A DNA stretch of 64,000 nucleotides from Candidatus Latescibacterota bacterium. GTDB lineage: Bacteria > Latescibacterota > CBDEFO01. The notes beneath the pieces were generated by a model. It made no database searches, was not told where the DNA came from, and saw only the letters and a program-made list of their open reading frames with translations. The position numbers were made by a program, and so were the translations under genes. Positions 15,808-34,581 of this stretch are shown one piece after another. How positions within the stretch are numbered: position 1 is the stretch's first letter; every line of letters starts with the position of its first letter. The DNA is taken from positions 320,001 through 384,000 of the forward strand of contig CBDEFO010000007.1 in assembly GCA_965237525.1 (NCBI GenBank), in the 5' to 3' direction.

Positions 15808-16447
15808 TATATTCCTGGCCTCTTACTCCAAGGTTCAGGTCTCTGTGAAATATATCACGGGATTCAACAAAGAACCTGAAGTATTTTGCAGTCTCTTTCT
15901 GAATTGGATCTGAATTGATCTGAATTAATTCATCCTGAAATGGGTCCTGAAGTTTTAGATCGTCCGGAGTTCTCCTCTCTAAAGTGGAGGCGACAGAGGA
16001 AGACGCTCTCTGTTCTCGGTTGATTGCAGCCATCATTTCCTCTATATAACCTTCGAGTCTGATAACTTCTTCAGCCTTGAATTCTACAATTTCGTCAGCG
16101 TATCTGTTTAACTTTTCCAAAATCGCGTATAGTCGGTCGCAGGTGTGCTTGTATTCTTCGAAAAGCGGCACGTAGGCTCCGAAGTGCTCTTCTTCATATT
16201 GGTCTACTGTTATTTTGTCCCGGAATCTGTCGTTGAAGTGCTTCCAGCGGTCGAGGACTATGGGGGCTCTGTTTCGCGCTCTGTCAAGAGTTGATTCCCA
16301 GCCGAAGGCGCTCGCTCTGTCCACCTTTTCAAGTCGCTTGGCGAAGTCTCTTACCGTGTAGAGTTCCATAATAAATACATTTACGAAGGCATGCATACAG
16401 CCTAAATATTCTGTAAGGGATATTTTATGCTCTTGCCCTATGTCCAA
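15800..16447 (-). CDS. Hypothetical helical protein
   Basis: 215-aa ORF with RBS, overlapping the TPR gene; operon context. Confidence 0.65.
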   Translation of the reverse strand: MDIGQEHKISLTEYLGCMHAFVNVFIMELYTVRDFAKRLEKVDRASAFGWESTLDRARNRAPIVLDRWKHFNDRFRDKITVDQYEEEHFGAYVPLFEEYKHTCDRLYAILEKLNRYADEIVEFKAEEVIRLEGYIEEMMAAINREQRASSSVASTLERRTPDDLKLQDPFQDELIQINSDPIQKETAKYFRFFVESRDIFHRDLNLGVRGQEYSG

Positions 16448-16460
16448 AGTATTCCTCCGT

Positions 16461-17117
16461 TTAGAGTTCCCTGGGTTTGGAAAGACTCAATTTTAGCATC
16501 TCATCGTAGTCGAATAGGATAGCCTCAGCGATGGTCGTCACTTTGTTCGCGGGATTTAAAGCCTCGTTGACGCTTGTCTTGAGCTCCATCCAGTGTTCCC
16601 ATATTTCGGTCTGTCTTTCTATAAGTTCTTGGTCTTTGATCTCCCGTCCTGGTTCAAAGTTGAGTTCGCAGGCGTAGAGTCGTTCTGGGGTAGTCGGATC
16701 GTACAAGGGGATACCGTACTTGCGGCATATTAGCGGTCGTGATTCGTAGATGGAGCAGGCGTCGTTCACAAGGGCTGGGCAGGGGAGTCTGAGTCCGAGC
16801 GATGAGATCTCTTCACCGTTGTCTACAAGAAGCGCGCCGGATTCTTCGGCTCTTTGACGGATTAGGTCTTTTTTTTCACGCAGATAGATAGTTGCTCTTT
16901 CTTGCATCTTGTTGCGGGCAGAAGTATCTAATCTTTTGACAGCGCGCGAGACCAGGGCTGCGTCGATGAGCGTGATCCTGAACATCTGACTGCAGCAGGA
17001 TGAGCATCCTTTGCCACACAGTATCTGGTCCTGATAGATGCGAAGATTACGGTCAAACTCCTGTTCTACAAGACCTACGATGAATCTATATTTTTCAAAT
17101 ACTTCTTTTGTATTCAT
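16461..17117 (-). CDS. YkgJ-family (CxxxCxxCC) Fe/Zn cysteine-cluster protein
   Basis: CGKGCSSCC, CPAL, CSIYESRPLICR. Confidence 0.85.
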   Translation of the reverse strand: MNTKEVFEKYRFIVGLVEQEFDRNLRIYQDQILCGKGCSSCCSQMFRITLIDAALVSRAVKRLDTSARNKMQERATIYLREKKDLIRQRAEESGALLVDNGEEISSLGLRLPCPALVNDACSIYESRPLICRKYGIPLYDPTTPERLYACELNFEPGREIKDQELIERQTEIWEHWMELKTSVNEALNPANKVTTIAEAILFDYDEMLKLSLSKPREL

Positions 17118-17278
17118 AAACTGAGTACCAAGGAAGGAATCTTCTATTTGTCAGAATTTACAATGAAAAATGCCGAAAGAACAAGCTTTCTTCCGGCACA
17201 AATTTGTAGGAGGCAGAGCCGTCTGTCTGCCTTGAGTTGCGCGGACACATGGGTACGCGCCTACTGTTTACTGCCTAT

Positions 17279-17755
17279 TTATTTTAAGGAAATATCGTGC
17301 AGTTCGCTATCCTTTTGCGGGTGATTCTGAGCTTCGGGGGTCTCGCTTCCGTCCAAAAGACCGTTCAGTGCCTCCAAAAGGGCATCTATATCGACTCCGT
17401 AGCCTTCAGCCGCGGGGCCCAGAACATGCTGTTCAGTGATGCTGCAGCTGGAACATCCGCCCAGATGAAAGTTGGACATAACTACTTCTGCGTTGGTATG
17501 GAGCCGTAAGGCTTCAGCGACGGTCATGTCTTTGTGAAATATGGCATCTCCGTTGAGCTTTCTGAACTCCTTCTTTATCATACTGCCCATCTGTTGCTTC
17601 ATATCTTCGCTGGAGACATTTACGTGCCTTCGAACACCATCTATAGAATCTTTTATAAATTCCAGCTCTTCTTTCAGCTTAGACGCGCCTCTCAGATTGA
17701 TCACGTAAAGTGTAAGAAGGACTGTCAAGCCTCCGTAAAGGACTACGCTTTCCAT
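17279..17755 (-). CDS. Membrane-anchored protein with C-terminal CxxC (DUF1858-like redox) domain
   Basis: N-terminal TM helix, coiled coil, DMTVAEAL...FHLGGCSSC...GVDIDALLEALN. Confidence 0.65.
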   Translation of the reverse strand: MESVVLYGGLTVLLTLYVINLRGASKLKEELEFIKDSIDGVRRHVNVSSEDMKQQMGSMIKKEFRKLNGDAIFHKDMTVAEALRLHTNAEVVMSNFHLGGCSSCSITEQHVLGPAAEGYGVDIDALLEALNGLLDGSETPEAQNHPQKDSELHDISLK

Positions 17756-17811
17756 AGTTGCACCACCTTTTTAGTCTGCTAGACAGGGGGCAAGGCGCCT
17801 GTCTACTTGGT

Positions 17812-18090
17812 CTAAGGTATATATTCTGCTAATTCGCTATCAACATCCTTAGGGTCTACTTCCTCACCGTTGTTGAGCCTTTCTATTATGCGTTCTATTA
17901 TCCTTTTGGCTTCTTCCTTTTTAAACTCTTTGATAAAGCCGTTGTAGAAGTGTTCGCCGGCCATGGCTCTGTTTATCTCTGTTTCTTTATCGTGATCGTC
18001 TAACTCCGTGTAATAGACGACGTCGTATCCTCTTTCGTGATACCCTCCCTCTTTGTAGATTTCGAACATGATCCTCTCAGATTCTAGCAT
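17812..18090 (-). CDS. Small acidic hypothetical protein
   Basis: 92-aa ORF with AGGAG RBS directly after the activase gene. Confidence 0.7.
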   Translation of the reverse strand: MLESERIMFEIYKEGGYHERGYDVVYYTELDDHDKETEINRAMAGEHFYNGFIKEFKKEEAKRIIERIIERLNNGEEVDPKDVDSELAEYIP

Positions 18091-18153: not shown

Positions 18154-21100
18154 CTATGCGGTTACGAGTTCTCCCTCTTTTTGGGTTACCTCGACTCCAT
18201 CGAGGGTTCCCTTTTCTGTCAATTCCCGTCTGAGTCGGTCTTCGAACTCTTTCAGCCTATCCTCGATCTTTGCCGTCTTCTCTTTTTCACGGACCATGTC
18301 CTCCATGTATCTCTTGAGGAAGTAATCGATTGTCTCAACCCTGATCTTGATAGATCCTGCGGGTTTATTTTCATCGATGTCCTTAAACGAAAAAGAGGGC
18401 GTTCCGGAGTCTTCGACGATCTCTTCTACTACTGTGTAGATAGGAGCGTCGTGTCCACATTTGAAGCTGGAGAGTTCTAAAGCGACCAGGTTGGGATGTC
18501 TGGCTGTAAATTTTGCTGCCCAGACCTTGCGGCTCGTGTTCTCGCTGTAGGAGTTCTTCCAGGCGTCGGAGATGTCCAACGGATGGGATATTATGCCCTG
18601 TTCAACCTCTTCTCCGAAGAGTTCCCAAAGGATGTCATCGTCTATGGGAAGTGAGTCCTCGGCGAAGACAGGATATCCGAGCTTTTGGAACTCCTCCATT
18701 ATTTCGTGATTTATTCCTGGATCGTTGTGGTATGGACGTCCCAGCAGGACTATACCGAGCTTGTCTTCGGCTTTGAGCATATCGAGGACTTCTCTTCCTT
18801 TGCCTCTCTGAACTACATTATTGAAGTGATCTAAAGCCTTGTAGCCCTCCTCGACAGCTCTTCTGTTCTCCTCTTTGGAGAGTCCGAACTTGGGTCCGAA
18901 CTCCTCGAACATCTGCTTCTGGAAGAGCTTGGGTTCGTCTATGGTGACGAACGTATCCAGGTATTCGATTCCCATTTTTTCGAAGAGGTTGCCCTCTTTG
19001 ATGAATGCGGCTTTGACCGCCTCAGGCGTGGTTGTGACTGTGGGACACGCTCTGCTGCTCTGTACGTTGACCAGATCGGTCGGGATGGAGTCTATCATGG
19101 GGAAGAAGATGTAATCCAGCGGCTTCTTCTTGTGATGCACGTACAGGAGGTTATGGACGTGCGGTATAGCTACCTTGCTGGGGAAGCAGGGGTCTATCGA
19201 GCCACGCTTTGCTCCCTCTTTGTACAGTTCCTGTGTGGTGAAATCCGAATAGACGAGGTTCCTGGGAGGGATTCCTATCGCCTCAAAGTATGCGCTAAAG
19301 AGAGGATTCTGGGAGTACATATTCAAAAGGCGGGGTATGCCTATTCTGATCTCCTGGCGCCTTTTCATCTTCCGGAGGTTCTCTTTGGCTTTCGACGTTA
19401 TGGCGTATTTGGGGATCGGGTCTGCCACTATTTCGGGTTTGTAGCTTTTCCAGACCTCTTTTGCGGCTACCTCGACGAGGTTGGGGTTTTGGGCTTTGGC
19501 TTCATCGAGTCCCTGCTTGATTCCCCGCATGTCCTCTATATCTTCGACGAGTCCCTTTTCACAGCTATTTCCCACGATGAGTCTCTTAAAGCCGGTCTCT
19601 ATGGGTACCTTGGATTTTTTGGATCCTGCGTCTTGGACCTCTTCGTCGCTGACCTTTACGTCTATGAATGTCCTGAGGCACTTGTTCTTGCAGAAGAAAC
19701 AGCGGGTGTTCTCGTCTCTGTGGGTCTGGTAAGTGATAGCTTCGACTGCATCCAGACCGATAAATGAAGTCTCTTTTCCGTTCTCCCACAGCCTTACAGC
19801 TTCAATGGCTGAGCCTATTGCTCCGCTCTCTCCGCAGTGCTCGTGGACGATAATTCTGGCTTTTTCCTGCTGGTCTTTGAACCTGGCCTCTATGAAGTCC
19901 ACCTGTGCCTTTACGGCAGCCAGGTTGTACTGTGTGCCGCCCTGAAGGACGAAGTTGGTTCCGAGCTTTGCCAGATTCGGTATCTGTGAGACGTAGAGCC
20001 AGATGTTTTTGGGGAGGACGTTGGCAAGCCCCGCCATTATCTCCTCGGGCTTCCAACCCTGTCTCTGGAAGTCAACTATGTCGGACTGCATGAAGACTGC
20101 GCAACCGTAGCCGAACATGGGCATAGACTCCGCGCCGAAGGCTATATCGGCAAAATCCTCGACGGTAAATCCGAAGCCTTCCGCAGTACCCTGGAGGAAA
20201 TAGCCGTTTCCTGCTGAGCACTGTGTGTTGAGCTTGAAGTCTTTGACCTGGCGGTTCTTGAGGATCATGATCTTGATGTCCTGTCCGCCTACATCGCAGA
20301 TGACGTCAACTTCATCGTAGAACCTGAGGGCGGCTTCAGTGTGTGCGACGGTTTCGACTAACGCTACGTCTGCGGCGACCGCATCTTTCAGGACGTCTTT
20401 TGCGTAACCTGTCGTGCCGACTCCCAGGACCTTTAGCGTTGCTCCCTGCTCCTCAACCTGCTCTCGTACCTTTCCTACGACCTCTATGGTGTCCTCGATG
20501 GGATTTCCCTTTGAAAGCTGGTAGGATTTGACAAGGACGTTTCTGTCCTTGTCCAAAAGGACAGCCTTTGTGGAGGTTGAGCCGCCGTCGATTCCGATGC
20601 AGCCTTCGACGACCTGTCCGGGGGAGAAGGTGGCAGGGATGAACTTTTTCGTCTTATATTTTTCCATGAAAGCCTCAAGTTCATCGGCAGTTTCGCTGAG
20701 TCCCTTTCCTCCCGCCTTCTGCTTCTCCTCAAGACGACCGACGTTCATGTAGTGCTCTAAGTCAGCTGTGCCTTTATAGACGCCTATTTCTGGTTCCTCC
20801 CCTTTTCCGAATTCGACTGCGCCTATGGCGGCGAAGTACTGGGCGTTTTCGGGGACTTTGATGAGGTCTTGAGGGTCTACACCCTCAGGCAGGGGGTAGT
20901 TTCTCTCCTCCCAGACTTTGGGTATGTTGTACTTCCAGGCTTCGGTCATACCTCTTATGAAGGTGTTGGGTCCACCAAGGAGCAGAACTTCTGGCCTTAG
21001 TGTGTTTCCTCTCGTTAAGACGCTTAAGTTTTGTCCTATGATGGCTTCAAAGAGGGACGCCATAATTTCATCTCGGGGAACGCCCGATTTTTGATGGCTG

Positions 21101-21663
21101 TTGACGTCTGTCTCGGCAAAGACGCCGCACTTTCCTGCGACAGGGTGGAGCTTGATGTCGAAGTATCCCTGGTCGCAGAGCTCCTCCGGCGGGATGCGCA
21201 GCTTCGCATTGATCTTGTCTATTACTGCCCCGGTTCCCCCTGCGCATTTGTCGTTCATGCTGGGGATCTTCCTCTTTCTGCCGGTCTCGGGGTCCTCCTG
21301 GAAGATGATGATCTTGGCATCCTGACCTCCGAGCTCTATGACCGATCCTACCTCAGGATGGAGCTTTTCGACGGCCAGGGATACAGCGTTGACTTCCTGG
21401 ACGAACTTTCCACCTATGTAGCCCGCAACCGAGTTACCGCCGCTCCCTGTTATAAAGATTCGATAATTCTCCGTAGGGAGTCCAAACTCGCCCTCTATTC
21501 GATCTAAGAACTCCATCACCTTTTCCGGCTGTCTGGTATCGTGCCGCTGGTAGTCCTTCAAGAGGATTTCGTCTGTGTCCGGGTTGACTACGATGAATTT
21601 TACGGTGGTGGATCCTACGTCCAGTCCGATCATCAAGCTATCTATAGTATTTTCCGCGCTCAT
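18154..21663 (-). CDS. BadF/BadG/BcrA/BcrD double-ATPase acyl-CoA dehydratase activase fused to a DUF2229-type domain (PlsA/Ger-like)
   Basis: Two ASKHA ATPase domains (GLDVGSTT...ELGGQDAK...MNDKCAGGTG; GIDGGSTST...DVGGQDIK...CSAGNG), CxxCxNxC linker, DPCFPSK, SFKCGHD. Confidence 0.88.
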   Translation of the reverse strand: MSAENTIDSLMIGLDVGSTTVKFIVVNPDTDEILLKDYQRHDTRQPEKVMEFLDRIEGEFGLPTENYRIFITGSGGNSVAGYIGGKFVQEVNAVSLAVEKLHPEVGSVIELGGQDAKIIIFQEDPETGRKRKIPSMNDKCAGGTGAVIDKINAKLRIPPEELCDQGYFDIKLHPVAGKCGVFAETDVNSHQKSGVPRDEIMASLFEAIIGQNLSVLTRGNTLRPEVLLLGGPNTFIRGMTEAWKYNIPKVWEERNYPLPEGVDPQDLIKVPENAQYFAAIGAVEFGKGEEPEIGVYKGTADLEHYMNVGRLEEKQKAGGKGLSETADELEAFMEKYKTKKFIPATFSPGQVVEGCIGIDGGSTSTKAVLLDKDRNVLVKSYQLSKGNPIEDTIEVVGKVREQVEEQGATLKVLGVGTTGYAKDVLKDAVAADVALVETVAHTEAALRFYDEVDVICDVGGQDIKIMILKNRQVKDFKLNTQCSAGNGYFLQGTAEGFGFTVEDFADIAFGAESMPMFGYGCAVFMQSDIVDFQRQGWKPEEIMAGLANVLPKNIWLYVSQIPNLAKLGTNFVLQGGTQYNLAAVKAQVDFIEARFKDQQEKARIIVHEHCGESGAIGSAIEAVRLWENGKETSFIGLDAVEAITYQTHRDENTRCFFCKNKCLRTFIDVKVSDEEVQDAGSKKSKVPIETGFKRLIVGNSCEKGLVEDIEDMRGIKQGLDEAKAQNPNLVEVAAKEVWKSYKPEIVADPIPKYAITSKAKENLRKMKRRQEIRIGIPRLLNMYSQNPLFSAYFEAIGIPPRNLVYSDFTTQELYKEGAKRGSIDPCFPSKVAIPHVHNLLYVHHKKKPLDYIFFPMIDSIPTDLVNVQSSRACPTVTTTPEAVKAAFIKEGNLFEKMGIEYLDTFVTIDEPKLFQKQMFEEFGPKFGLSKEENRRAVEEGYKALDHFNNVVQRGKGREVLDMLKAEDKLGIVLLGRPYHNDPGINHEIMEEFQKLGYPVFAEDSLPIDDDILWELFGEEVEQGIISHPLDISDAWKNSYSENTSRKVWAAKFTARHPNLVALELSSFKCGHDAPIYTVVEEIVEDSGTPSFSFKDIDENKPAGSIKIRVETIDYFLKRYMEDMVREKEKTAKIEDRLKEFEDRLRRELTEKGTLDGVEVTQKEGELVTA

Positions 21664-21760: not shown

Positions 21761-23536
21761 CTATGCGGCTTTGTTTGCGTCCTTTTTGCCTTCTTCTGCA
21801 TCCATGCGTTCTTTTATGTGCAGGACGAAGTTAGATGCAACGCTTACGAATCCTTTCTGATGAGGAACCTTGTACATAGGCCGCTTGAGTTCGGGGTGTC
21901 TTTCAACGTAGTCTTTGACGTCCGCTACTGCGAGCCCGGTCTTTTCGAGGGCTTCTTTGAACTCGTTCTTGGCCTTGATCTTCGCCTCTCCGAGTGCCAT
22001 TTGTACTCTGGAGTGGGCGTTAATCTCGCCTTCACCGGACGTCTCAACAGGGAGGTAGATCATGTCCTTGTACTGGGATGTGACTGCGGCTTGCGCGCCA
22101 TCGCTCTGAGTGCTGGGCATGCAGCCGAACGGCTTCATGGAGAGCACCATGTGACAGAGGTCTTTGTTGCTGTAGTAGATGTTCTTGGCGACCTCGAGGT
22201 GCCCTTCACCGCCTCCTGCTCTGGAGTTGTAGAAGGTGTGCCCGAGCCTCTGGAGCTCGTACTGGTCGGTGAGCCCGTGAGCTGTACCTCCCAGGGCTTC
22301 GCGGATCTTATCGTATTCTCTCTTAAAAATCTTCTCTGCAATTGAAAGGGTTCCCAATGTTTTCCTGTAGGCAAAAGCGTTGGAGAGGCGCCCCCGGAGA
22401 TTCCACCACTCGGGCGGCTCTTCGCCTTCCTTTATACCATTTCTGTCCACTGTCTCCTGCTTTGCCTGGTGAATCATGTACGTAATCCACGTCCCGATGG
22501 GCTCTACTAACACCTGAGCGTTTTCTCTTTCCAGGAAGCGGAACATGTTGAAGTTGCCGTCGCCCTCTGTGGTCTGCGCCCAAAACTCGCCCGTAATCTT
22601 GACTAGAGGCTTGACTCTGGTGCGGTCCACATCTATCTCATTGAGGCGATCTCTGACCTGTTCAAGGGCACTGATGTATTTGTCGCCGAATAGCTGCTCT
22701 AGAAATTTACCTAGATATAGAGATTTGTCGAAGACGCTGGGGAACTTTTTCAGAAAACTCCCAATTTTTCCTTCTAACTGTAAGGGTTTTTTGTTCTTTA
22801 TTACGTCATGCATATCGTCCATGCACTCCTTCATGACCCTTTCTGTTTCCCCTTCGTTCACCTCGTAGGGCCTAATCTCATAGCACACTTCATTTATTAG
22901 ATCGCCCATGTTAAGGGCGTTGAGTATTCCGAGGAAGAAGTCGAGGTTCATCTCAAGTCCGGCTTCGACCTCCGCCTGGTCGAGTCCGCCGGACTGCGAG
23001 AAGAGGAGGACTCTGAAGCCGTCGAAGCCTGAATTTCTAAGGGCGAGTCTATATTCGGCTTCGTACATTCCGAACCTGCATGGACCGCACGCCCCTGCGG
23101 TGAAGAAGACGTAGTCATCAATTATGTCTTTCCTGTCCATCCCCCCTTCCTCCAGCTTCTGGAGGTACTGGACGAGGTTGCCTACTGTGAAGTATGTGGG
23201 ATTGCACTGTCCGTTGTTGCCGTATTCCTTGCCGAGTTGGAAGGCCGCAACATCGGGGGTGGGAACGCTTTTGCACTTGTAGCCAAGGGATTCTAAGGCT
23301 CCGTGAATCAGGTGTTCGTGCTTCCAGGTGAGCCCGCCGAAGAGGATAGTCGTGTGATCTCTTTGATCGGCGGTGAAGGCGTTTTCTACGGGCTTTTCGA
23401 AGTGGTGTATATGCTTCTCTTCGATTCCTTCCTTCTCCATCAACCGCTTTCTTTCCTCTTCGAGCTTCTGCCGTATATCATCCTCGATTGAGGAGATCTC
23501 CAGAAGTCCGCCATTTACGATTGGCTGGGTCGCCAT
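21761..23536 (-). CDS. 2-hydroxyacyl-CoA dehydratase-like reductase subunit (PlsR-like)
   Basis: QCNPTY, GACGPCRFGMY, ITGEF, GGEG, PFGCMP motifs; upstream of the activase. Confidence 0.82.
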   Translation of the reverse strand: MATQPIVNGGLLEISSIEDDIRQKLEEERKRLMEKEGIEEKHIHHFEKPVENAFTADQRDHTTILFGGLTWKHEHLIHGALESLGYKCKSVPTPDVAAFQLGKEYGNNGQCNPTYFTVGNLVQYLQKLEEGGMDRKDIIDDYVFFTAGACGPCRFGMYEAEYRLALRNSGFDGFRVLLFSQSGGLDQAEVEAGLEMNLDFFLGILNALNMGDLINEVCYEIRPYEVNEGETERVMKECMDDMHDVIKNKKPLQLEGKIGSFLKKFPSVFDKSLYLGKFLEQLFGDKYISALEQVRDRLNEIDVDRTRVKPLVKITGEFWAQTTEGDGNFNMFRFLERENAQVLVEPIGTWITYMIHQAKQETVDRNGIKEGEEPPEWWNLRGRLSNAFAYRKTLGTLSIAEKIFKREYDKIREALGGTAHGLTDQYELQRLGHTFYNSRAGGGEGHLEVAKNIYYSNKDLCHMVLSMKPFGCMPSTQSDGAQAAVTSQYKDMIYLPVETSGEGEINAHSRVQMALGEAKIKAKNEFKEALEKTGLAVADVKDYVERHPELKRPMYKVPHQKGFVSVASNFVLHIKERMDAEEGKKDANKAA

Positions 23537-23643: not shown

Positions 23644-24069
23644 TCAAAAATTTACTATCCCTTGTGAACCGTATTTTAGTGTCTCATCTACAATTGAGTT
23701 CAAATCGAGATTGTTTTTTGCATCGCTTCTGACTACGGCTGTGTATATCACTTCCTTAACAGTACCTATGATACAGGAGGATACGACATGGACATTGCAC
23801 TCCCTAACTATGCCCATCTCTATTCCCAGTTTTAGGGCAGAGGCTACCATCCCGTGGAGTTTATCATCGAATTCCTGCAACTTTCGGTTGAATTCTTCAT
23901 CTACTCCGCTTGCGTGGTCGAAGAGTATCTTGGTGAGTTCTCTGTTTGACGACAGGAACTCCATAATTATGAAAATGTTGTCTCTTAATTGTTGACGGGG
24001 TTCGGGAGCATGAGGTGAAAGATCTATTCTCTTTATTTTGCCTGAAATCTCGTCTAAGACATGGTCTAA
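23644..24069 (-). pseudogene. TetR-family regulator, C-terminal part only; truncated at IS
   Basis: Frame stays open upstream of the track ORF (LDHVLDEISGKIKRID...) to the IS end; LKLGIEMGIVR...V..CIIG pattern typical of TetR C-domains; no HTH on the far side of the IS. Confidence 0.65.
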
Positions 24070-25588
24070 AAGCCTTGTGAAAAACCCTTAGATTCAGAAA
24101 ATAGTATAAAACAAGCATTGATAAAGCAGCTCCGATGTATTATATTATGTTATTGATAATATTATACATGGAGGAAACAATGACCCCACAAAAGCAGGAA
24201 CAGACAAATCCGATGTTTCACTATTTTCAGATGGAGGATTTAGTTCCCGAGGATCATATCCTTCGTCAGATTGATGAGGCAGTTGATTTTTCATTTGTAC
24301 GAGACGTTGTATCAGATTGTTATTGCCCTGACAATGGCAGACCCGGTATTGATCCTGAATTAGTTGTTCGAATGATCCTTATTGGCTATCTGTATAATTT
24401 GAGTGAGAATCGGCTCTGTCAGGAAGTGGGGATGCATGCGGCATATCGGTTGTTTTGTCATCAGACATTTGATGATGCGGTTCCGGATAGGAGCACGATC
24501 AACAAGCTTCGCAATCACAAGTGGGCATCCAGTGGGTTGTTTGAACGGATAATGCGTCAGGTAGTCCAGTGTTGCATAGATGTCGGTCTTGTGAGCGGTA
24601 AACACCTTAGTGTCGACGGCACTCAGATACAAGCTGATGCTTCAGTGAAAAGTATTGAGCCGATAGAACCCCCTGTTTCTCTTGATGATTATCTCAAGGG
24701 AATCGGTTTTGAAGGTGATAAGACAAAGGGTAGGTCCGGGCATCCTCAGGATAAAGACTTTCATGGTGAAAAGTGGACGAACCAAACACACCGTTCGACT
24801 ACAGACCCCGACGCGCGCTTATACAGCAAATCGAAGGGCAAAGGGGCTTTTCTCTCGTTTATGGGCCATGATCTGATCGACACAAAAAGCAGAGTAATCC
24901 TTGAGACTCAGGGCACGCAGGCGACAGGGACAGCAGAGCCCGAAAGTGCCCTTAAGATGGTAGATGACCTTGAAACATACACCATGCCCAAAGACATTCA
25001 GACACTTAGTGCCGATACCGGTTACGGTTCTGGTAATTTTATCGCTGATGTACTTGACCGGGGAATCATACCCCATATTCCTCTGCGAGCCGATGAGAAG
25101 ATTGAACCGATTCCTACATGGAAAAACAAGACAAATCCAGCACATATTCAGGCCGAACGGGATAGAAAAGTGCGAGAGGCGAAAGCCAGAAATCATGCAC
25201 GGTCTATCTCATTAACAGCTGACTACAAACTCTCCCGGAGACTCCGTAAACGCAGTGAACATATCTTTGCTGAAGCCAGGCAACAATACGGTATGGGACG
25301 AGCCCGTTACAGAGGACCAGCCTCACTGAATGAACAGTTGAATCTTGTTGCAACAGTACAGAATCTCAAGAGGCTTGTATCTTTCATAAGAAGGGGGAAA
25401 GCGTCTATGTGTGCCCTGTCTGTCAAAGACAGTGCATCCTGTTCTTCAAACAGCTCCTATTCCTTGCTGACCAGAACTCTGATAAGACTATTTTGCTTAT
25501 TCCACAGCAAAACGATACGATATGCTACTCTTTGACCCATAATCGGCGCTTCAGACGCTGCCTGGGACATAACTATTTCACAAGGCTT
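24070..25588 (+). mobile_element. IS1182-family insertion sequence, copy 1 (1519 bp)
   Basis: Terminal IRs AAGCCTTGTGAAA / TTTCACAAGGCTT; CTAA on both flanks (24066-69, 25589-92); transposase 24135..25535. Confidence 0.93.
24135..25535 (+). CDS. IS1182-family DDE transposase
   Basis: VPEDHILRQID, GRPGIDP, VDGT, TDPDAR, ADTGY, SEHIFAEAR. Confidence 0.93.
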   Translation: MYYIMLLIILYMEETMTPQKQEQTNPMFHYFQMEDLVPEDHILRQIDEAVDFSFVRDVVSDCYCPDNGRPGIDPELVVRMILIGYLYNLSENRLCQEVGMHAAYRLFCHQTFDDAVPDRSTINKLRNHKWASSGLFERIMRQVVQCCIDVGLVSGKHLSVDGTQIQADASVKSIEPIEPPVSLDDYLKGIGFEGDKTKGRSGHPQDKDFHGEKWTNQTHRSTTDPDARLYSKSKGKGAFLSFMGHDLIDTKSRVILETQGTQATGTAEPESALKMVDDLETYTMPKDIQTLSADTGYGSGNFIADVLDRGIIPHIPLRADEKIEPIPTWKNKTNPAHIQAERDRKVREAKARNHARSISLTADYKLSRRLRKRSEHIFAEARQQYGMGRARYRGPASLNEQLNLVATVQNLKRLVSFIRRGKASMCALSVKDSASCSSNSSYSLLTRTLIRLFCLFHSKTIRYATL

Positions 25589-25796
25589 CTAATACGAGAC
25601 AAAAAAACTTCCGAAGTTATGTAGCTATTTTTGAATCTATGTCATACTCCACGGCTGTAAGACCTCACATAGTCTGCATCGCCGTTATTCGTATATCTGC
25701 TGGGGACCCGCGCGCCACGCGCCTTAAGTCGAGTCGTGCCGAGCCCCTTGACAGATTCTTAATTCAAGCGATAGCTTCCTCCAGTTCGAGTTCAGG

Positions 25797-27670
25797 TTAA
25801 CGTTTAGGTATCTCAATTTGAAGGAGGCTGTCTTTGTCAGTAGGGACTGCGCTAGTTATAGGAGAATCATATTCGGGCAGGGGTACATCCCTCATGTTGG
25901 CGTAGACCGGATGTCTGCCCTTTTCCTTGAACCAGTCGCGCGTGGTGGCGTTCATGAACATCTTCTCGATTATCTGCCTCCACCCAACGCCGGTGTTGTA
26001 AGCGCAGAAGGAAATTTCTCCCATCTGCGTGGCGTAGGGGATAATGCACATCTCTGTGCGGCGGAAGTCGTAGGTGAAGAGGTCCTGAAACCACATTCCG
26101 GCGATGAAGAGGATTAGCCACTCGTCCTCTTTTCTGTTTTCGTTGTCTTCTCCTCCGAGCTTGCCCCCAAGTGACCCCCCACTCTGTTTGTCAAACTTCT
26201 TCAGCAGGTCTCTGAGTTTGAAATTTCCGGGCGCTTTGTCGGGGTTGTAGTTTCTCAGAAGTGAAAGGGCAATCTGGAATTTGGTTAGCGCCGGGCCTCT
26301 GTTTGTGTCGGTCATGACTTTTATGTCTTCAAAGAAGCGTTCGACGTTTATGACCTGGGGGAGCGGGGCCCACTCTTTTGTATTCTCTTGTTGACCAGAA
26401 GAGCGGTCGAGATACCGCAGTTGGGATGGCATCCGCACTTCATCGTGCCCCAGTCTGATCCCGCTCCTTTTATTAGGTCTGTCAGATCTGCAATTGCTCC
26501 TGCGGCTGAGATGGGGAACCAGTCCCTCAAGGGCTCGGTGATGCCTGTCTGCGTCTTGGCGTCGTGCGCAAGGTGAGACAGCGTGTATCTTTGTCTTTCT
26601 CTCAGTTCGTCTGTGATGTCTTCGTCTCTTCCCGTGAAAGATACTGGCTGAAAGGCGATAAAGCTGATCTTGTTGGCGTTTTCGACTGCAAAGTCTATAA
26701 CAGGTCCGACCTGGTCGTCGTTGATCGTGTTGACTATAGTAACCACCAGCACGACATCTATTCCAGCTTTGTAAAGGTTTTCGATTGCCCTTAATTTAAC
26801 GTCGAAAAGATTGCTGATTTTTCTGTGGGCGTGGTTCTTGTTTCCCACGCCGTCGAACTGGAGGTAGGCGATCCTCAATCCCGCATCTCTGGCCTTCTCG
26901 GCAAATCCTGGCTCCTGTGCAAAGCGTATTCCGTTTGTAGCAGCCTGTATGCTGAAGTAGCCTATCTCTTCGGCGTAGGCTACTGATTCCAGGAAAATGG
27001 GCGAGATGGTGGGTTCCCCGCCTGAGAACTGGATGGACATTTGCCTTTTGGGCTTAATAGTAAGTGAGTCGTCTAATATCTTTTTTATCTCATCAAACGT
27101 CAGTTCGTGGACGTAGCCGACCTGGTTTGCGTCCATAAAGCAGGGATCGCACATCATATTGCAGCGGTTGGTCAGGTCAACGGTAAGGACAGAGCCTCTG
27201 CCGTACTGGATGGAGGATGTGCCATGGTTGTGAAGGGTATCTGTGATCGCTTTGAAGTCCCTGCCTGGATAGAGCCTTTCGATGCGATCGAAGAATTTGG
27301 GGTCTATGGATATTGTGTCCGTGAAGAGCCCGTGCTTAGGACAGGTCTTCTCCATTACTATCTTGCCGTCCTTTTGGAGGATACTAGCTTTGATCTCTCC
27401 GGGGTGCCCTTCAGTCAGGAGGCTCAAGTCCTCCTCGCCGGAGAGTATCTTTTCCCTTACCTCTTTGACGCACTTGGGACAGAGAGAGTCCGTCTCTCTT
27501 GGCCAACCTAATTTGGGTCTGGAACGTTCCTTGCTCTTCATAAGGGGCTGGGGTGCCCACTTTGGCTGAACAGGATTACCAGGCTTAATTCTATTGAAGG
27601 TCTGAAAGATAGTCCACGTCACTGCTGCTGTTCTGGTAAGCGCAAATTCTAAGGCTTTGGTAGTGTTCAT
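25797..27670 (-). CDS. Radical SAM protein of the tetraether synthase (Tes/GDGT-MAS, MJ0619) family; frameshift near 26385
   Basis: SLCPKC...KTCPKH, DLTNRCNMMCDPCF, IAYLQFDG, FQPVSFTGR, HPNCG in ORF 26348..27670; continues as GMWFQD, MCIIPY, SFCAYN in ORF 25797..26438. Confidence 0.85.
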
Positions 27671-27941
27671 GTGTTCTCCCCCAAATTTGAAGAACTTCTC
27701 TTTACCTTTTTAAGGTTTCCCTACTCTTATGAAACTGATCAGGCTCAAGTCCGTTGCTTTCACTGCTAATAGTTGCTATTTCCATTTGGTGCGTGTACTT
27801 GTCTTATCCGTCACGCTCGCGATAATTATACCTGTTTGTAGAGACAGAACAAAAGTATTTTCACTTAACAGGCGTTTTACACGTCTTTTCGGTCAGAATG
27901 TAGGCTGAATGGTTCGGCATAGTAAAGTTATTGATATTTAG

Positions 27942-29460
27942 AAGCCTTGTGAAATAGTTATGTCCCAGGCAGCGTCTGAAGCGCCGATTATGGGTCAAAG
28001 AGTAGCATATCGTATCGTTTTGCTGTGGAATAAGCAAAATAGTCTTATCAGAGTTCTGGTCAGCAAGGAACAGGAGCTGTTTGAAGAACAGGATGCACTG
28101 TCTTTGACAGACAGGGCACACATAGACGCTTTCCCCCTTCTTATGAAAGATACAAGCCTCTTGAGATTCTGTACTGTTGCAACAAGATTCAACTGTTCAT
28201 TCAGTGAGGCTGGTCCTCTATAACGGGCTCGTCCCATACCGTGTTGTTGCCTGGCTTCAGCAAAGATATGTTCACTGCGTTTACGGAGTCTCCGGGAGAG
28301 TTTGTAGTCAGCTGTTAATGAGATAGACCGTGCATGATTTCTGGCTTTCGCCTCTCGCACTTTTCTATCCCGTTCGGCCTGAATATGTGCTGGATTTGTC
28401 TTGTTTTTCCATGTAGGAATCGGTTCAATCTTCTCATCGGCTCGCAGAGGAATATGGGGTATGATTCCCCGGTCAAGTACATCAGCGATAAAATTACCAG
28501 AACCGTAACCGGTATCGGCACTAAGTGTCTGAATGTCTTTGGGCATGGTGTATGTTTCAAGGTCATCTACCATCTTAAGGGCACTTTCGGGCTCTGCTGT
28601 CCCTGTCGCCTGCGTGCCCTGAGTCTCAAGGATTACTCTGCTTTTTGTGTCGATCAGATCATGGCCCATAAACGAGAGAAAAGCCCCTTTGCCCTTCGAT
28701 TTGCTGTATAAGCGCGCGTCGGGGTCTGTAGTCGAACGGTGTGTTTGGTTCGTCCACTTTTCACCATGAAAGTCTTTATCCTGAGGATGCCCGGACCTAC
28801 CCTTTGTCTTATCACCTTCAAAACCGATTCCCTTGAGATAATCATCAAGAGAAACAGGGGGTTCTATCGGCTCAATACTTTTCACTGAAGCATCAGCTTG
28901 TATCTGAGTGCCGTCGACACTAAGGTGTTTACCGCTCACAAGACCGACATCTATGCAACACTGGACTACCTGACGCATTATCCGTTCAAACAACCCACTG
29001 GATGCCCACTTGTGATTGCGAAGCTTGTTGATCGTGCTCCTATCCGGAACCGCATCATCAAATGTCTGATGACAAAACAACCGATATGCCGCATGCATCC
29101 CCACTTCCTGACAGAGCCGATTCTCACTCAAATTATACAGATAGCCAATAAGGATCATTCGAACAACTAATTCAGGATCAATACCGGGTCTGCCATTGTC
29201 AGGGCAATAACAATCTGATACAACGTCTCGTACAAATGAAAAATCAACTGCCTCATCAATCTGACGAAGGATATGATCCTCGGGAACTAAATCCTCCATC
29301 TGAAAATAGTGAAACATCGGATTTGTCTGTTCCTGCTTTTGTGGGGTCATTGTTTCCTCCATGTATAATATTATCAATAACATAATATAATACATCGGAG
29401 CTGCTTTATCAATGCTTGTTCTATACTACTTTCTGAATCTAAGGGTTTTTCACAAGGCTT
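27942..29460 (-). mobile_element. IS1182-family insertion sequence, copy 2 (1519 bp)
   Basis: Same IRs; TTAG on both flanks (27938-41, 29461-64); transposase 27995..29395. Confidence 0.93.
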
Positions 29461-29704: not shown

Positions 29705-31224
29705 AAGCCTTGTGAAATAGTTATGTCCCATGGCAGCGTCTGAAGCGCCGATTATGGGTCAAAGAGTAGCATATCGTATCGTTTTGCTGTGGAATAAGCA
29801 AAATAGTCTTATCAGAGTTCTGGTCAGCAAGGAACAGGAGCTGTTTGAAGAACAGGATGCACTGTCTTTGACAGACAGGGCACACATAGACGCTTTCCCC
29901 CTTCTTATGAAAGATACAAGCCTCTTGAGATTCTGTACTGTTGCAACAAGATTCAACTGTTCATTCAGTGAGGCTAGTTCTCTGTAACGGGCTCGTCCCA
30001 TACCGTGTTGTTGCCTGGCTTCAGCAAAGATATGTTCACTGCGTTTACGGAGTCTCCGGGAGAGTTTGTAGTCAGCTGTTAATGAGATAGACCGTGCATG
30101 ATTTCTGGCTTTCGCCTCTCGCACTTTTCTATCCCGTTCGGCCTGAATATGTGCTGGATTTGTCTTGTTTTTCCATGTAGGAATCGGTTCAATCTTCTCA
30201 TCGGCTCGCAGAGGAATATGGGGTATGATTCCCCGGTCAAGTACATCAGCGATAAAATTACCAGAACCGTAACCGGTATCGGCACTAAGTGTCTGAATGT
30301 CTTTGGGCATGGTGTATGTTTCAAGGTCATCTACCATCTTAAGGGCACTTTCGGGCTCTGCTGTCCCTGTCGCCTGCGTGCCCTGAGTCTCAAGGATTAC
30401 TCTGCTTTTTGTGTCGATCAGATCATGGCCCATAAACGAGAGAAAAGCCCCTTTGCCCTTCGATTTGCTGTATAAGCGCGCGTCGGGGTCTGTAGTCGAA
30501 CGGTGTGTTTGGTTCGTCCACTTTTCACCATGAAAGTCTTTATCCTGAGGATGCCCGGACCTACCCTTTGTCTTATCACCTTCAAAACCGATTCCCTTGA
30601 GATAATCATCAAGAGAAAAAGGGGGTTCTATCGGCTCAATACTTTTCACTGAAGCATCAGCTTGTATCTGAGTGCCGTCGACACTAAGGTGTTTACCGCT
30701 CACAACACCGACATCTATGCAACACTGGACTACCTGACGCATTATCCGTTCAAACAACCCACTGGATGCCCACTTGTGATTGCGAAGCTTGTTGATCGTG
30801 CTCCTATCCGGAACCGCATCATCAAATGTCTGATGACAAAACAACCGATATGCCGCATGCATCCCCACTTCCTGACAGAGCCGATTCTCACTCAAATTAT
30901 ACAGATAGCCAATAAGGATCATTCGAACAACTAATTCAGGATCAATACCGGGTCTGCCATTGTCAGGGCAATAACAATCTGATACAACGTCTCGTACAAA
31001 TGAAAAATCAACTGCCTCATCAATCTGACGAAGGATATGATCCTCGGGAACTAAATCCTCCATCTGAAAATAGTGAAACATCGGATTTGTCTGTTCCTGC
31101 TTTTGTGGGGTCATTGTTTCCTCCATGTATAATATTATCAATAACATAATATAATACGTCGGAGCTGCTTTATCAATGCTTGTTCTATACTACTTTCTGA
31201 ATCTAAGGGTTTTTCACAAGGCTT
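29705..31224 (-). mobile_element. IS1182-family insertion sequence, copy 3 (1520 bp)
   Basis: Same IRs; TTAG on both flanks (29701-04, 31225-28); transposase 29759..31147. Confidence 0.93.
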
Positions 31225-31258: not shown

Positions 31259-33040
31259 ATGCCCAATATACTGCTGGTCTATCCAGAAAACCCTATTACG
31301 TTTTGGAGCTTTTCTGAATCTTTGAAGCTGCTGGGGAAAAAAGCGGCTCAGCCCCCGTTAGGATTATTGGGGGTGGCTGCGCTGCTGCCCGAAGGGTATA
31401 ATCCAAGACTGATCGATATGAATGTTGAACCGCTCACGGACGAAGCGATTGAAGGAGCGGACGCGGTTTTATGTTCTTCGATGATAATTCATCAAGAGTC
31501 TGTAAGGGAAATAATTGACAGGTGTAATCGTCTGGAAACTCCTATCATGTTGGGTGGACCGTATCCGACCCAGTACCACGATTTGATAGAGGGCAACGCT
31601 ACTTTTTTCTTAGGCGAGGCGGAAAATGGGTTTGCCGATGCCCTGGAGGAGATGTTGTACTCACCTGGGGAGATCAAAAGGAGCGTAATAGATACGAAAG
31701 GCCAGTTCCGAAGTTTAGAGGAGGTTCCACTCCCGAGGTACGATCTACTTGATTTATCCGATTATGTTGGAATGATTATTCAACTTACCCGCGGCTGTCC
31801 TGAAAAATGTACTTTTTGCGACATCCCGGGACTCTATGGAAGGACGACCCGACTGAAGACAGAGGAGTTGGTTATCCGAGAAATGGACTACCTTTATGAG
31901 TTGGGATGGCGTGGATCTGTTATGTTTGCCGACGATAATTTCGTGGGTAATCAGGAGGAAGTTTTGATGAAGTTAGAAAAAATCATCCCCTGGCAAAAAG
32001 AGCGCTGCTATCCCTTTCATTTTTATACTCAAGCCAGCCTGAAAATGTACGATAATCCAGATCTAATGGAGGCCATGTATCAGGCGGGATTCGATTCCGT
32101 CTTTATCGGATTGGAATCTCCGTCGGCGGAAAGTCTCAAGTTTATGGGCGCTCAAAAGAACCTGGTCAAGGGGAAATCAATGCTTGAAAAGGTCCTCGAG
32201 ATCGAAAAGAGGTACTTTAAAGTCTGGGCGGGTTTTATAGTCGGCTTCGACACCGATCCGGATGATATATCCGAAATAATGATCGATTTTATCAACAGCG
32301 TTAATATCGAAATAGCTATGGTCGGACCTTTAGGCGTTATGAGGGGCACACCTGACTATATAAGGTATAATAGAGCAGGTAGATTGACCGACAAGCTGTA
32401 CACGGGGAATTCGGGAATCTTTACAGACCAGTTGAGCTACATACCTCACGACAGAGATGGCAACCAGATAGATCCCAGCGTGATAATGGGACGTCACAAG
32501 AAGATTGTAGAGACCCTAAACAGCCCCAAAGTTTACTTCAAGCGCGCTCTCAAGTATTTGAAGATTAAGGAAAGAGCACCGATTGTTGTTCCTCCGGTCG
32601 GGAAATCTGAAATTAGAGGATTGTTCAATTCTATCTATAGACAGGGCCTTAGGGGGAACTACAAGTGGCAATATTGGTCGTTTCTAGCTAAGGTCTGTAT
32701 ATACAATCTGAAGGATTTTCCTTCAGCTGTCAGGAGCGCTATCTTCGGCCATCATTTGATTACAATTACTCAGCAGGCGTCTGACGTGCACGAGTTGAAT
32801 TCCTACCTGGATAAGTCGCTAAAACAGTTGAGTAAGAGTTACGATCAGTTGATAAAGGGATACGAAACGTCTTCAGCTGAGATGTGGGAATTTGGGAGGG
32901 AACTAATTAAAGGGGCAAAGAAACGATACGGAAAGATCAAAGCCGACTATCAGGGGCAGGTGGAGGATGTTTACAATAGCTTTCTAGAAGAGGCGCAGAA
33001 GGTTATAGCTTCGTGTAAGTCCAAGAGATCCATTTTATAG
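31259..33040 (+). CDS. B12-binding radical SAM protein, DUF4070/HpnP-like class
   Basis: ILLVYPENPITFWSF...PPLGLL, GGPY, TRGCPEKCTFC, FADDNF, GFIVGFDTD. Confidence 0.88.
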   Translation: MPNILLVYPENPITFWSFSESLKLLGKKAAQPPLGLLGVAALLPEGYNPRLIDMNVEPLTDEAIEGADAVLCSSMIIHQESVREIIDRCNRLETPIMLGGPYPTQYHDLIEGNATFFLGEAENGFADALEEMLYSPGEIKRSVIDTKGQFRSLEEVPLPRYDLLDLSDYVGMIIQLTRGCPEKCTFCDIPGLYGRTTRLKTEELVIREMDYLYELGWRGSVMFADDNFVGNQEEVLMKLEKIIPWQKERCYPFHFYTQASLKMYDNPDLMEAMYQAGFDSVFIGLESPSAESLKFMGAQKNLVKGKSMLEKVLEIEKRYFKVWAGFIVGFDTDPDDISEIMIDFINSVNIEIAMVGPLGVMRGTPDYIRYNRAGRLTDKLYTGNSGIFTDQLSYIPHDRDGNQIDPSVIMGRHKKIVETLNSPKVYFKRALKYLKIKERAPIVVPPVGKSEIRGLFNSIYRQGLRGNYKWQYWSFLAKVCIYNLKDFPSAVRSAIFGHHLITITQQASDVHELNSYLDKSLKQLSKSYDQLIKGYETSSAEMWEFGRELIKGAKKRYGKIKADYQGQVEDVYNSFLEEAQKVIASCKSKRSIL

Positions 33041-33087: not shown

Positions 33088-34581
33088 TCAGATGACCGGA
33101 TCTAATTCCGGGTCGTCTCTTTCCACTCTTTCTTGCAATGTGCTGAAGAATTCTTCACGATTCGGCGTGGCAAGTGCGGTCAAGTTGGAGACAGGATCGA
33201 GGTTTTGTACCTGATCTTCGACCCCAAATGTCTTCCAGACGTTCCACAGTCCTTTCAGGCTCAAGCCAGAGATGCCTTTTACGACCCGATCCAAGCGTCT
33301 CAGGGGGTTATAGAACGAAAGGTACGCTTTCTTTATCTTCTCCTCGATGAGTTCTGCCGGTACACTATCTCGATGAAAGACTGCCTTGGTTCCGGAAAAA
33401 TTCGCCCAGTTGTCGTCGAAGATACGATCTTTAGTTCTGTCCCAGTCCACCGTCCCCGGGTAAGGCGTCAAAATAGAAAATTGAGCTTGATGGGCGTCCA
33501 GTTGCCTGGCGTAAGCGATGGTGCGATCGATGTCCGCTTCGGTCTCGTACATAAAACCGATAATAAAAGAGGTGAGCGCTCGGATGCCGTGATGGCGCAA
33601 AAGCTCAACCGCTAGCATTCCTGTATCGAGTTTCATCGCTTTGTTGCAATGCTTGAGAACGTGCTCATTTCCCGATTCAAGTCCAAGAAAGACATTGGAG
33701 CAGCCAGCCTTGGCCATGTGTTCCACAAGGTCAGGATTTTTGACCAGAATATCAGCTCGAGATTGACACCACCAGTAAACCTGCAATTTGCGTTCGATGA
33801 TCTCTGCGCAGAGCTCATGAATGCGCTTGACATTCGTTGTTAAAAGGTCGTCGACCAGTAATACCCCCTTAAATCCAAATTCTTCCAACAATAGCTCCAT
33901 CTCGTCGACTGAAAGTTGTGCCTCGCGCGAGCGCCATTTCCTCTTTTGATACAAAGTCGGCACAGAACAGAACGTGCAGGCGTACGGACAACCGCGGCTG
34001 GTGATCATACTGGTCACAGCCACGCCCCTCAGCCGCGTGGCTTTATAAGGTTCCATGTTCAAAAGGTGACGCGCCGGACCCGGCAGATTATCGACTGTCT
34101 CTATATCGGGACGCTGCGGATTGTCCACCACGACGCCATCTTCTTTATCGTACCACGACAGGCTCGGAACTTTGGTGGGATCAAAGCGCGAGCCCTTTTT
34201 GGCAAGTTCCCGCGCCAGAGCAGAAGCAGCAAGCTCTCCCTCGCCGCGGATAACAAAATCGACACAGTCGAGCTTGAGGGTCGTCTGAGTTGTAAAGGTC
34301 ACATGCGTTCCACCCAGCAACACACGGCAGCCAGCATCGTGCGCATTCCGGGCGTACTCCAGTGCCGAAGGATACTGCGGCGTGGTGCACGTAATGCCCA
34401 CCAGGTCGAACCCGTCGTACGATTCGGTTCCCTCATAGAAGGTCATATCCCGCACTTCGACCTCGTGACCATCTGCAGCAAGTTTGCCCGCAACGTAGAG
34501 TAATCCCAAGGGTGGGAGGATGACACGGGTGGCGTGATAGAGCGAATGCATAGGGGGCGTAATCAACAATATTTTCAGCAT
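33088..34581 (-). CDS. B12-binding radical SAM protein (class B methylase/cyclase-like)
   Basis: PPLGLLY, GGTH, RGEGE, TSRGCPYACTFC, GLESGN, TPYPGT. Confidence 0.88.
   Translation of the reverse strand: MLKILLITPPMHSLYHATRVILPPLGLLYVAGKLAADGHEVEVRDMTFYEGTESYDGFDLVGITCTTPQYPSALEYARNAHDAGCRVLLGGTHVTFTTQTTLKLDCVDFVIRGEGELAASALARELAKKGSRFDPTKVPSLSWYDKEDGVVVDNPQRPDIETVDNLPGPARHLLNMEPYKATRLRGVAVTSMITSRGCPYACTFCSVPTLYQKRKWRSREAQLSVDEMELLLEEFGFKGVLLVDDLLTTNVKRIHELCAEIIERKLQVYWWCQSRADILVKNPDLVEHMAKAGCSNVFLGLESGNEHVLKHCNKAMKLDTGMLAVELLRHHGIRALTSFIIGFMYETEADIDRTIAYARQLDAHQAQFSILTPYPGTVDWDRTKDRIFDDNWANFSGTKAVFHRDSVPAELIEEKIKKAYLSFYNPLRRLDRVVKGISGLSLKGLWNVWKTFGVEDQVQNLDPVSNLTALATPNREEFFSTLQERVERDDPELDPVI

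Follow-up and report, generated by a model that had tools for sequence, protein, structure and literature searches.

A frameshifted Tes/GDGT-MAS-like radical SAM gene with an altered ligand set, and its intact twin, in a probable Latescibacterota sponge symbiont

We analysed a 64,000-nucleotide (nt) stretch of Candidatus Latescibacterota bacterium DNA (assembly GCA_965237525.1, contig CBDEFO010000007.1, positions 320,001 to 384,000; hereafter the window, and its genome G000), in which a minus-strand gene at 25797-27670 encodes a long-form homologue of Tes/GDGT-MAS, the S-adenosylmethionine (SAM) radical enzyme that couples lipid tails in archaea. The protein keeps the coupling-centre residues and the fold of GDGT-MAS, and its long-form clade has a different set of putative metal ligands near the N-terminus and beside the C-terminal cluster. 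The copy in the window is likely a dead, frameshifted one, and an intact twin lies on contig C4 of the same genome. From the combined analyses, we consider it rather probable that the intact C4 twin couples lipid tails in the synthesis of bacterial membrane-spanning ether lipids, in what is probably a sponge symbiont of the Latescibacterota.

Results

Identity, motifs and fold of the Tes-like gene

25797..27670, minus strand: long-form Tes-like radical SAM gene, frameshifted; the intact twin has 623 amino acids (aa)
26384..26385, no strand: 2-nt insertion relative to the C4 copy, from comparison of the two genomic copies

The gene is read in two overlapping minus-strand frames, a 5' open reading frame (ORF) of 440 aa (26348-27670) and a 3' frame, and both pieces match the Tes model NF045702 at adjoining model positions (2-346 and 346-483). 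Every motif named by the original prediction was located on the minus strand at the place given there, including the rubredoxin-type motif (C64/C67...C110/H113, 27481-27334), the radical SAM CxxxCxxC (C170/C174/C177, 27163-27142; PF04055 match), FQPVSFTGR, which is likewise found in GDGT-MAS, and the C-terminal motifs HPNCG (C418, 26419), GMWFQD (M525, 26096), MCIIPY (C541/Y545, 26048/26036) and FCAYN (C555, 26006). A homologue search returned P0002, a single-frame protein of 623 aa with 98% identity across the 5' ORF of the window. Using phmmer, P0002 matched GDGT-MAS (7TOL) with an E-value of 2e-67 over residues 93-572. The AlphaFold model of the intact protein (pLDDT 81.9, from a 113-row alignment) matched 7TOM/7TOL in Foldseek (E 1e-30, TMt 0.81) and 7TOL in VIA (Z 32.0, rmsd 3.1, 451 residues aligned), where the next other protein was MoaA with a Z of 19, and the match to GDGT-MAS spans the SAM barrel and the C-terminal domain. 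These comparisons bear out the proposed homology, and the gene is a Tes/GDGT-MAS-like radical SAM homologue. The radical SAM model of TrsS (NF045646) gave 215 bits against a cut-off of 490, and an Atlas search with P0002 returned only clusters labelled 'putative radical SAM', mostly from Acidobacteriota.

The long-form proteins share several features that set them apart from canonical bacterial Tes. Their rubredoxin-type residues C64/C67/C110/H113 (domain PF23545) and the SAM cysteines C170/C174/C177 are invariant (113/113 in the long-form alignment), and the rubredoxin spacer is 42 aa in 120/120 long-form proteins, compared with 20 aa in 119/120 canonical ones, which agrees with the insertion after the first CxxC that had been described. 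The N-terminal extension is about 55 aa long with a predicted helix at residues 3-26. The amphipathic character that had been ascribed to this extension holds for the family profile (p 0.0002-0.003 in three windows of analysis), but for the helix of the window protein by itself it was not significant (p 0.12-0.40).

Ligands kept, lost and gained

For comparison with archaeal GDGT-MAS/Tes MJ0619 (PDB 7TOL/7TOM; NF045702; PMC9433317, PMC8941075), ligand numbers were taken from PMC9433317, and the PDB chain numbering (7TOL) runs 20 residues ahead of them. Aligned with this offset, C110/H113 correspond to C33/H36, C418 to C338, M525 to Met439, C541 to C455, Y545 to Tyr459 and C555 to C470, and the intact protein has in common with MJ0619 the fold, the rubredoxin-type set of three Cys and one His, the SAM cluster, FQPVSFTGR and the C-terminal cluster residues with the Met439 and Tyr459 equivalents. 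The suspected equivalence of the C-terminal Cys and Met residues is thereby upheld. In the long-form alignment, C418 is conserved in 113/113 rows, M525, C541 and C555 each in 112/113, and Y545 in 111/113. All five columns are also kept in 120/120 canonical bacterial Tes, for example P0122 from the same phylum. Because the three cysteine columns are Cys in all of these canonical proteins, we infer that C418, C541 and C555 are the three cysteine ligands of the C-terminal cluster.

The N-terminal region is different. In the window protein, TLHNHGTSSIQYG occupies the position of C73/C77/C80/H83 in MJ0619, the ligand set of the N cluster, and these four residues align with T145/H149/S152/Q155, such that H149 and S152 stand in place of C77 and C80. 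By pattern search, the [Fe4S4]N motif was found in 0/120 long-form proteins and in 0/98 full-length locus proteins (106 loci, of which 8 incomplete ones were dropped), compared with 119/120 canonical proteins; the canonical proteins retain the C77/C80/H83 columns in 120/120 cases. The loss of CPxxCGLCxxH had therefore been noticed correctly, and it extends to the whole clade. H149, S152 and S153 are invariant in the long-form clade (113/113), as are two extra cysteines, C412 and C414 (113/113), which lie within a CxCHxxCG motif present in 119/120 and 98/98 long-form proteins. The canonical proteins have Cys at the 412 column in 2/120 cases and at the 414 column in 44/120, and MJ0619 has Leu and Ser there. 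In view of the invariant CxC gained beside C418 and the invariant His and Ser at the C77 and C80 places, the ligand set appears to be rewired rather than simply reduced. The idea that the enzyme works with one fewer cluster thus stands as far as the N-cluster cysteines are gone, but the reduction itself is unproven. C412/C414 together with H149 may bind a replacement metal. Our literature searches, whose coverage excluded subscription journals, found no paper on a lost N cluster or a CxC motif in bacterial homologues. As a general stand-in for the lost cluster, the small 158-aa redox protein encoded in the window (see below) was rejected, since it was carried by 0/80 related loci of the Genome Taxonomy Database (GTDB).

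Frameshift in the window copy and the intact twin

The frameshift suspected in the original prediction was located as the 2-nt insertion at 26384-26385, and within the gene nothing else distinguishes the window copy from the C4 copy (G000:C4:36938-38809). The latter encodes 623 aa with 2 residue differences from P0002, and it is thus a natural intact copy in the same genome. The insertion breaks the frame after residue 428, and the 5' ORF is out of frame from 429. It cuts off M525, C541, Y545 and C555, four of the five coupling-centre residues, so the window copy presumably could not build the C-terminal cluster. A programmed frameshift was ruled out because the intact twin exists, and the C4 copy as well as 6/7 covering runs are in frame.

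To judge the insertion, contigs from eight sequencing runs were compared with the gene, seven of which covered the site. The insertion is probably a real slip in a redundant copy, which would be free to decay; the smaller but substantial chance is that it is a sequencing or consensus error and that both copies are intact in the organism. An error would fit an insertion that lengthens an AG dinucleotide run, that is the sole in-gene difference between the two copies and that is missing from six of the seven covering runs (X1, X2, X3, X6, X7, X9), although such contigs drop minority alleles. The assembly also has a broken transposase frame in 28 of 133 full copies of the insertion sequence (IS) described below, which may reflect either decay or error. 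A real slip is favoured by run X5, in which a contig bridges the site with the insertion and without any other difference (at depth 2, and possibly from the source sample), and by two further runs with different frame-breaking insertions in the gene, namely 5 nt at 26152 (X8, depth 6.6) and 1 nt at 25955 (X3, depth 3.7). A promoter and terminator scan gave nothing usable. RNA run X8 holds short contigs that are near-identical to the gene, and such contigs cannot show transcription.

Locus history

24070..25588, plus strand: IS copy 1, IS1182/IS5-like DDE transposase (466 aa); flanked by CTAA at both ends; splits a tetR-like gene
27671..27941, minus strand: upstream region of the Tes-like gene; congener G001 retains 27694-27941, where it abuts the plsR-like 5' region
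27942..29460, minus strand: IS copy 2; flanked by TTAG at both ends; the site is empty in G001
29705..31224, minus strand: IS copy 3; G001 has no IS here

In the window, the Tes-like gene is at its native locus. Congener G001, a 98% complete genome in one contig, aligns syntenically with the window at about 95% but is without window 23650-27693, which holds tetR, IS copy 1 and the Tes-like gene. Most likely, G001 deleted the gene, because the upstream DNA is kept in G001, the IS copies have their own target repeats, and in three genomes of family f12 (74-75% identity) the Tes-like gene is followed directly by the same downstream genes of 158 aa and 215 aa. The same three observations rule out a recent horizontal arrival of the gene on the IS unit.

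IS copies 1 and 2, each with its own 4-bp target repeat, landed on either side of the native gene and bound a 5.4-kb IS-gene-IS unit, which was then copied to C4, where it recurs at 99.8% identity. There, it sits in an 8.4-kb block flanked by CTAA that includes a third IS, at a site that is empty in G001, and the flanks directly outside the two-IS unit are CTAA and TTAA. The original copy afterwards likely took the 2-nt slip. The IS-gene-IS unit is the sole duplicated segment among 31 inter-IS segments (0.3-8 kb). A haplotype duplicate is an unlikely explanation for C4, since the two places share only the IS-bounded unit, their flanking DNA is different and the congener has nothing inserted at the C4 site. 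The arrangement resembles composite transposons of the IS1182/IS5 type in that two inverted IS copies enclose a passenger gene which occurs again elsewhere, where a 4-bp target repeat frames the C4 block; it differs from them in its passenger, a lipid enzyme of the chromosome. Since the C4 block further contains the third IS and another 1.5 kb of sequence, the duplication could have come about as readily by recombination between IS copies as by clean transposition.

The transposase scores 262 bits against the IS1182 cut-off of 270 and 151 bits against the IS5 cut-off of 140. In G000 this single 1.5-kb IS1182/IS5-like element, whose target is strictly YTAR, is present in 134 full copies (at least 98% identical), and in G001 there are 2 at 98% identity and about 5 at 88%; the IS burst in G000 is very recent. 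Beside the transposed gene, a 1.5-kb segment lies between two IS copies (G000:C4:40541-42035), the first 824 bp of which are 97% identical to C8:1708306-1709130, likewise beside an IS, which suggests IS-mediated shuffling. Between IS copies 2 and 3, about 110 bp (window 29526-29634) are an 82%-identical copy of an internal plsR-like coding stretch, which is not at this place in G001.

Neighbouring genes and genomic context

15448..18090, minus strand: five small co-oriented genes (92-aa orphan, 158 aa, 218 aa, 215-aa orphan, 119 aa)
18154..21663, minus strand: Ger/PlsA-like ATP-dependent activase-reductase, 1169 aa, with two PF01869 domains and PF09989 (BBD)
21761..23536, minus strand: PlsR-like reductase subunit, 591 aa, from fold likeness and context
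23644..24065, minus strand: 3' remnant of a TetR-like regulator; weak PF17932 match (E 4.7e-4, below cut-off); frame open up to IS copy 1
31259..33040, plus strand: B12-binding radical SAM protein with DUF4070, 593 aa, from domain matches
33088..34581, minus strand: B12-binding radical SAM protein, 497 aa, from domain matches

On the minus strand, the Tes-like gene is followed by IS copy 1, the TetR remnant, the 591-aa and 1169-aa genes and the five small genes, and it is co-oriented in one row with a BBD-type Ger/PlsA-like gene and a partner of predicted benzoyl-CoA reductase/2-hydroxyacyl-CoA dehydratase (BCR/HAD)-type fold. The 1169-aa protein has two PF01869 activation domains and PF09989, as the Ger/PlsA definition requires, and the BBD is described as the conserved Ger architecture (PMC13159169). 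The 591-aa protein had no match in Pfam, NCBIfam or PDB sequences, and PF06050 was not matched up to an E-value of 1. When its model was searched with Foldseek, all 11 top-listed matches were benzoyl-CoA reductase, 2-hydroxyacyl-CoA dehydratase or double-cubane proteins, with probabilities of 0.90-1.00 and borderline E-values (1e-3 to 1e-2), and this predicted fold fits PlsR. In domain architecture and predicted fold, the pair resembles the Ger/PlsA-PlsR reductases (PMC13159169, PMC13274423), and it differs from them in the 591-aa subunit without Pfam match and with borderline fold E-values; whether its product is an alkyl or a vinyl ether cannot be told from sequence. In related loci, plsA follows the plsR-like gene in 67/80 cases. 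The 92-aa orphan (window 17812-18090), which has no family match, follows plsA in 16/80 plsR loci with 43-65% identity, and could possibly be an accessory subunit of the reductase. Among the other small genes, the 158-aa protein has a TIGR03980 redox-disulfide domain, the 218-aa protein a CxxCxxCC motif and the 119-aa protein TPR. Just upstream of the plsR-like start, window 23555-23615 contains short tandem GGTTGTCTACT-type repeats, and this tract is 18 bp shorter in G001.

Both B12 radical SAM genes lie beyond IS copies 2 and 3. The 593-aa DUF4070 protein, which we take to be similar to HpnP, was rejected as a hopanoid methylase, as no squalene-hopene cyclase was found in G000 (96.6% complete). 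The 497-aa B12 radical SAM gene tracks the Tes-like gene across four families (window 33088-34581; L092:4687-6179; L137, L138, L142). Its close orthologue (at least 68% identity) is present in 11/168 genomes of the phylum, ten of which carry the Tes-like gene. The eleventh is G001, where tes is lost and the 497-aa gene has two frameshifts, unlike the other 9 window genes, which were matched there in one piece. In family f7, 2/31 genomes (G078 and G079) have both genes and are the sole carriers of either, and in these the 497-aa orthologue is the next neighbour of the Tes-like gene. In G010, a canonical Tes gene is followed by a homologue (42%) of the 497-aa enzyme. We regard the 497-aa enzyme as a candidate methylase of membrane-spanning lipids.

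Long-form Tes lies 0.5-2.5 kb behind plsR-plsA in 2/80 metagenome loci; 29 of the 80 have at least 8 kb downstream. In five picked loci from acidobacteria, genes typical of fatty-acyl clusters occur (FabA/Z, ketosynthase, MMPL, acyltransferase and AMP ligase; 21 ORFs scanned). The long-form genes in these loci (L009, L011, L018, L029, L083) lie in aryl-polyene-like fatty-acyl clusters with FabA/Z, ketosynthase, MMPL, a lipid A-type acyltransferase, B12 radical SAMs and a LolA-like gene. A conserved neighbourhood of the whole clade was looked for and not found, the largest neighbour clusters (apart from ORFs overlapping the gene) spanning 5-7/80 loci. As a separate line of evidence, the genes around the Tes-like gene favour a lipid substrate.

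Distribution, phylogeny and host

A scan of GTDB found at least 589 related stretches, of which the best 80 are mostly from Acidobacteriota, Myxococcota and Gemmatimonadota with 56-69% identity. In the phylum of the window, the canonical form occurs in one genome. The long-form clade is widespread and common in nature. The gene had been proposed as a bacterial variant, and it is indeed a Tes homologue in a bacterial host but not a singular one, as the clade spans hundreds of genomes. In a FastTree phylogeny of 54 picked rows (no archaeal sequences, midpoint root), the long-form clade and canonical bacterial Tes form separate groups (local support 100%) divided by a long branch. One genome of the same phylum (G069) has two equal-scoring long-form copies (G069:C1:2301049-2302809 and 3379825-3381585), one of which is about 2.3 kb from an orthologue of the 497-aa B12 gene. 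The RNA runs holding the gene, among them X8 with its near-identical pieces, are labelled sponge metagenome, and the host is a probable Latescibacterota sponge symbiont.

Discussion

According to PMC9433317 and PMC13459092, GDGT-MAS performs two SAM-derived hydrogen abstractions at tail ends, and the first radical is kept on a sulfur atom belonging to the C-terminal cluster; its N cluster and rubredoxin site are on the surface with unclear roles, and bacterial phospholipids bind in its pockets. Since the N cluster is a surface cofactor of unclear role, its loss need not stop catalysis. If the intact twin worked like GDGT-MAS, a 5'-deoxyadenosyl radical would take hydrogen from one tail, the tail radical would be stored on a sulfur in the [4Fe-4S] cluster of the C-terminal domain, and the C-C bond would be closed by means of a second SAM-derived radical, by which two fatty-acyl or alkyl tail ends would be joined to a membrane-spanning lipid. 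Ethers would be made from esters by the Ger/PlsA-PlsR pair, and methyl groups or rings would be introduced into the chains by the B12 radical SAM enzymes, on the model of Gmm, which is reported to cluster with Gms (PMC11214058). The expected products would be diacid-ether lipids or lipids resembling brGDGTs (glycerol dialkyl glycerol tetraethers of the branched type). C30-C31 membrane-spanning diacid ether lipids are contained in sponges, and the accessible part of the same 2026 preprint lists homologues of ger in Latescibacterota and places tes in metagenome-assembled genomes (MAGs) of Acidobacteriota alone (bioRxiv 10.64898/2026.06.23.733905).

Bacterial Tes homologues have already been put forward as brGDGT candidates, with 456 homologues including 40-42% and 32% types in Acidobacteria (PMC8941075). 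For Solibacter usitatus, two Tes homologues, a PlsA/PlsR pair and a Grs-like protein were proposed as a pathway (PMC10087280; bioRxiv 2022.04.07.487437), and its PlsR/PlsA pair (589 and 1188 aa) and B12 radical SAM protein (597 aa) are similar in size to those found here (591, 1169 and 593 aa); judged by locus tags, its genes are scattered, whereas here they form one row. Its Acid_5929 is probably of the canonical bacterial type, in which the N-cluster columns are kept. The weaker acidobacterial homologues, S. usitatus Acid_2410 (714 aa, 30.1% to MA_1486; PMC10087280) and that of E. aggregans (32%; PMC8941075), are long, lie at a similar distance from archaeal Tes and are printed as brGDGT synthase candidates. 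Judged from length and identity, the long-form clade is probably the weaker 'second Tes homolog' listed for Acidobacteria, including Acid_2410.

Several observations weigh against a tail-coupling role. The intact protein is only 29-30% identical to GDGT-MAS, and it scores 327 bits on NF045702, close to three relatives (317-344 bits) and below the cut-off of 450, for which reason it is not filed as Tes; the canonical P0122 scores 578 bits. The protein probably works like Tes all the same, but it lacks two defining features, the N-cluster ligands and a sufficient NF045702 score. The long branch in the tree could mean a changed reaction. In the literature, we found no demonstration of tail coupling by any bacterial Tes homologue, the bacterial candidates are described as unvalidated in PMC11868695, PMC13159169 and PMC13274423, and with a strict cut-off Tes homologues were reported in only 3/14 acidobacteria producing iso-diabolic acid (PMC13159169). 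The gene is dispensable in the congener G001. With respect to context, plsA/plsR was near long-form Tes in 0/80 GTDB loci within the flanks fetched (longer than 15 kb in 43/80). In the phylum, long-form tes occurs in 26/168 genomes (G000 included) and plsR in 7/168, with G000 as the only overlap. Fifteen g25 genomes carry the Tes-like gene without the 497-aa partner, and related genomes and loci are not independent in any of the co-occurrence and neighbourhood counts.

The most serious competitor, which we consider possible but clearly less probable, is that the clade acts on lipid with other chemistry or another substrate, such as the cross-linking or cyclisation of a specialised fatty-acyl metabolite, macrocyclisation solely within one molecule, desaturation, or the insertion of sulfur taken from the C-terminal cluster. 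The rewired ligand set and the long branch would fit such a change, and the same can be said of the close homologues in aryl-polyene-like clusters with an MMPL exporter and an acyltransferase and of the lack of a single conserved neighbourhood over 80 loci. Furthermore, S. usitatus carries both 40% and 30% Tes homologues, and one may therefore do something else. However, the long form retains all residues to which Csp3-Csp3 coupling has been tied in GDGT-MAS, and a neighbour of the ester-to-ether reductase type, which points to a membrane-lipid function, is found here and in two of the 80 other loci, so that tail coupling remains our preferred reading. A function on a soluble cofactor, as implied by the label 7,8-dihydro-6-hydroxymethylpterin dimethyltransferase, is very improbable: the label is an old one on the source names of many homologues and survives in the Pfam domain name Zn_ribbon_HMPTM, but PMC9433317 could not corroborate this activity for MJ0619 and reported lipid in its pocket, and the neighbouring genes here are of the lipid type.

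A broader joint reading can be formulated, in which the long-form clade would be the bacterial membrane-spanning-lipid synthase with the N cluster swapped for a C412/C414-H149 metal site, the whole pathway (ether reductase, tail-coupling enzyme, and B12 methylase or cyclase) would stand in one row, the host would be a source of the sponge C30-C31 diacid ether lipids, and the synthase would have been rescued by its IS-mediated copy as the original broke. Taken as a whole, this reading is unlikely to hold.

Conclusion

The bacterial Tes hypothesis is already in print, the clade is common and the window copy is broken; new at this locus are the intact twin, its IS-mediated duplication, the ligand swap, the specific B12 partner and the host group. 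The brGDGTs are widely used climate proxies, and the enzymes synthesising them are unproven in Acidobacteria and most other producers. The locus provides a compact set with a natural intact allele, which includes the Tes-like protein, Ger/PlsA-PlsR and two B12 radical SAM proteins, and flags the 497-aa B12 enzyme as a candidate for methylating the chains, which is what sets the temperature proxy. It also extends the candidates to a probable Latescibacterota sponge symbiont, compared with the tes MAGs from Acidobacteriota alone in the accessible part of the 2026 survey. In addition, the apparent cofactor swap in the long-form clade can be a natural test of the purpose of the N-terminal cluster of GDGT-MAS.

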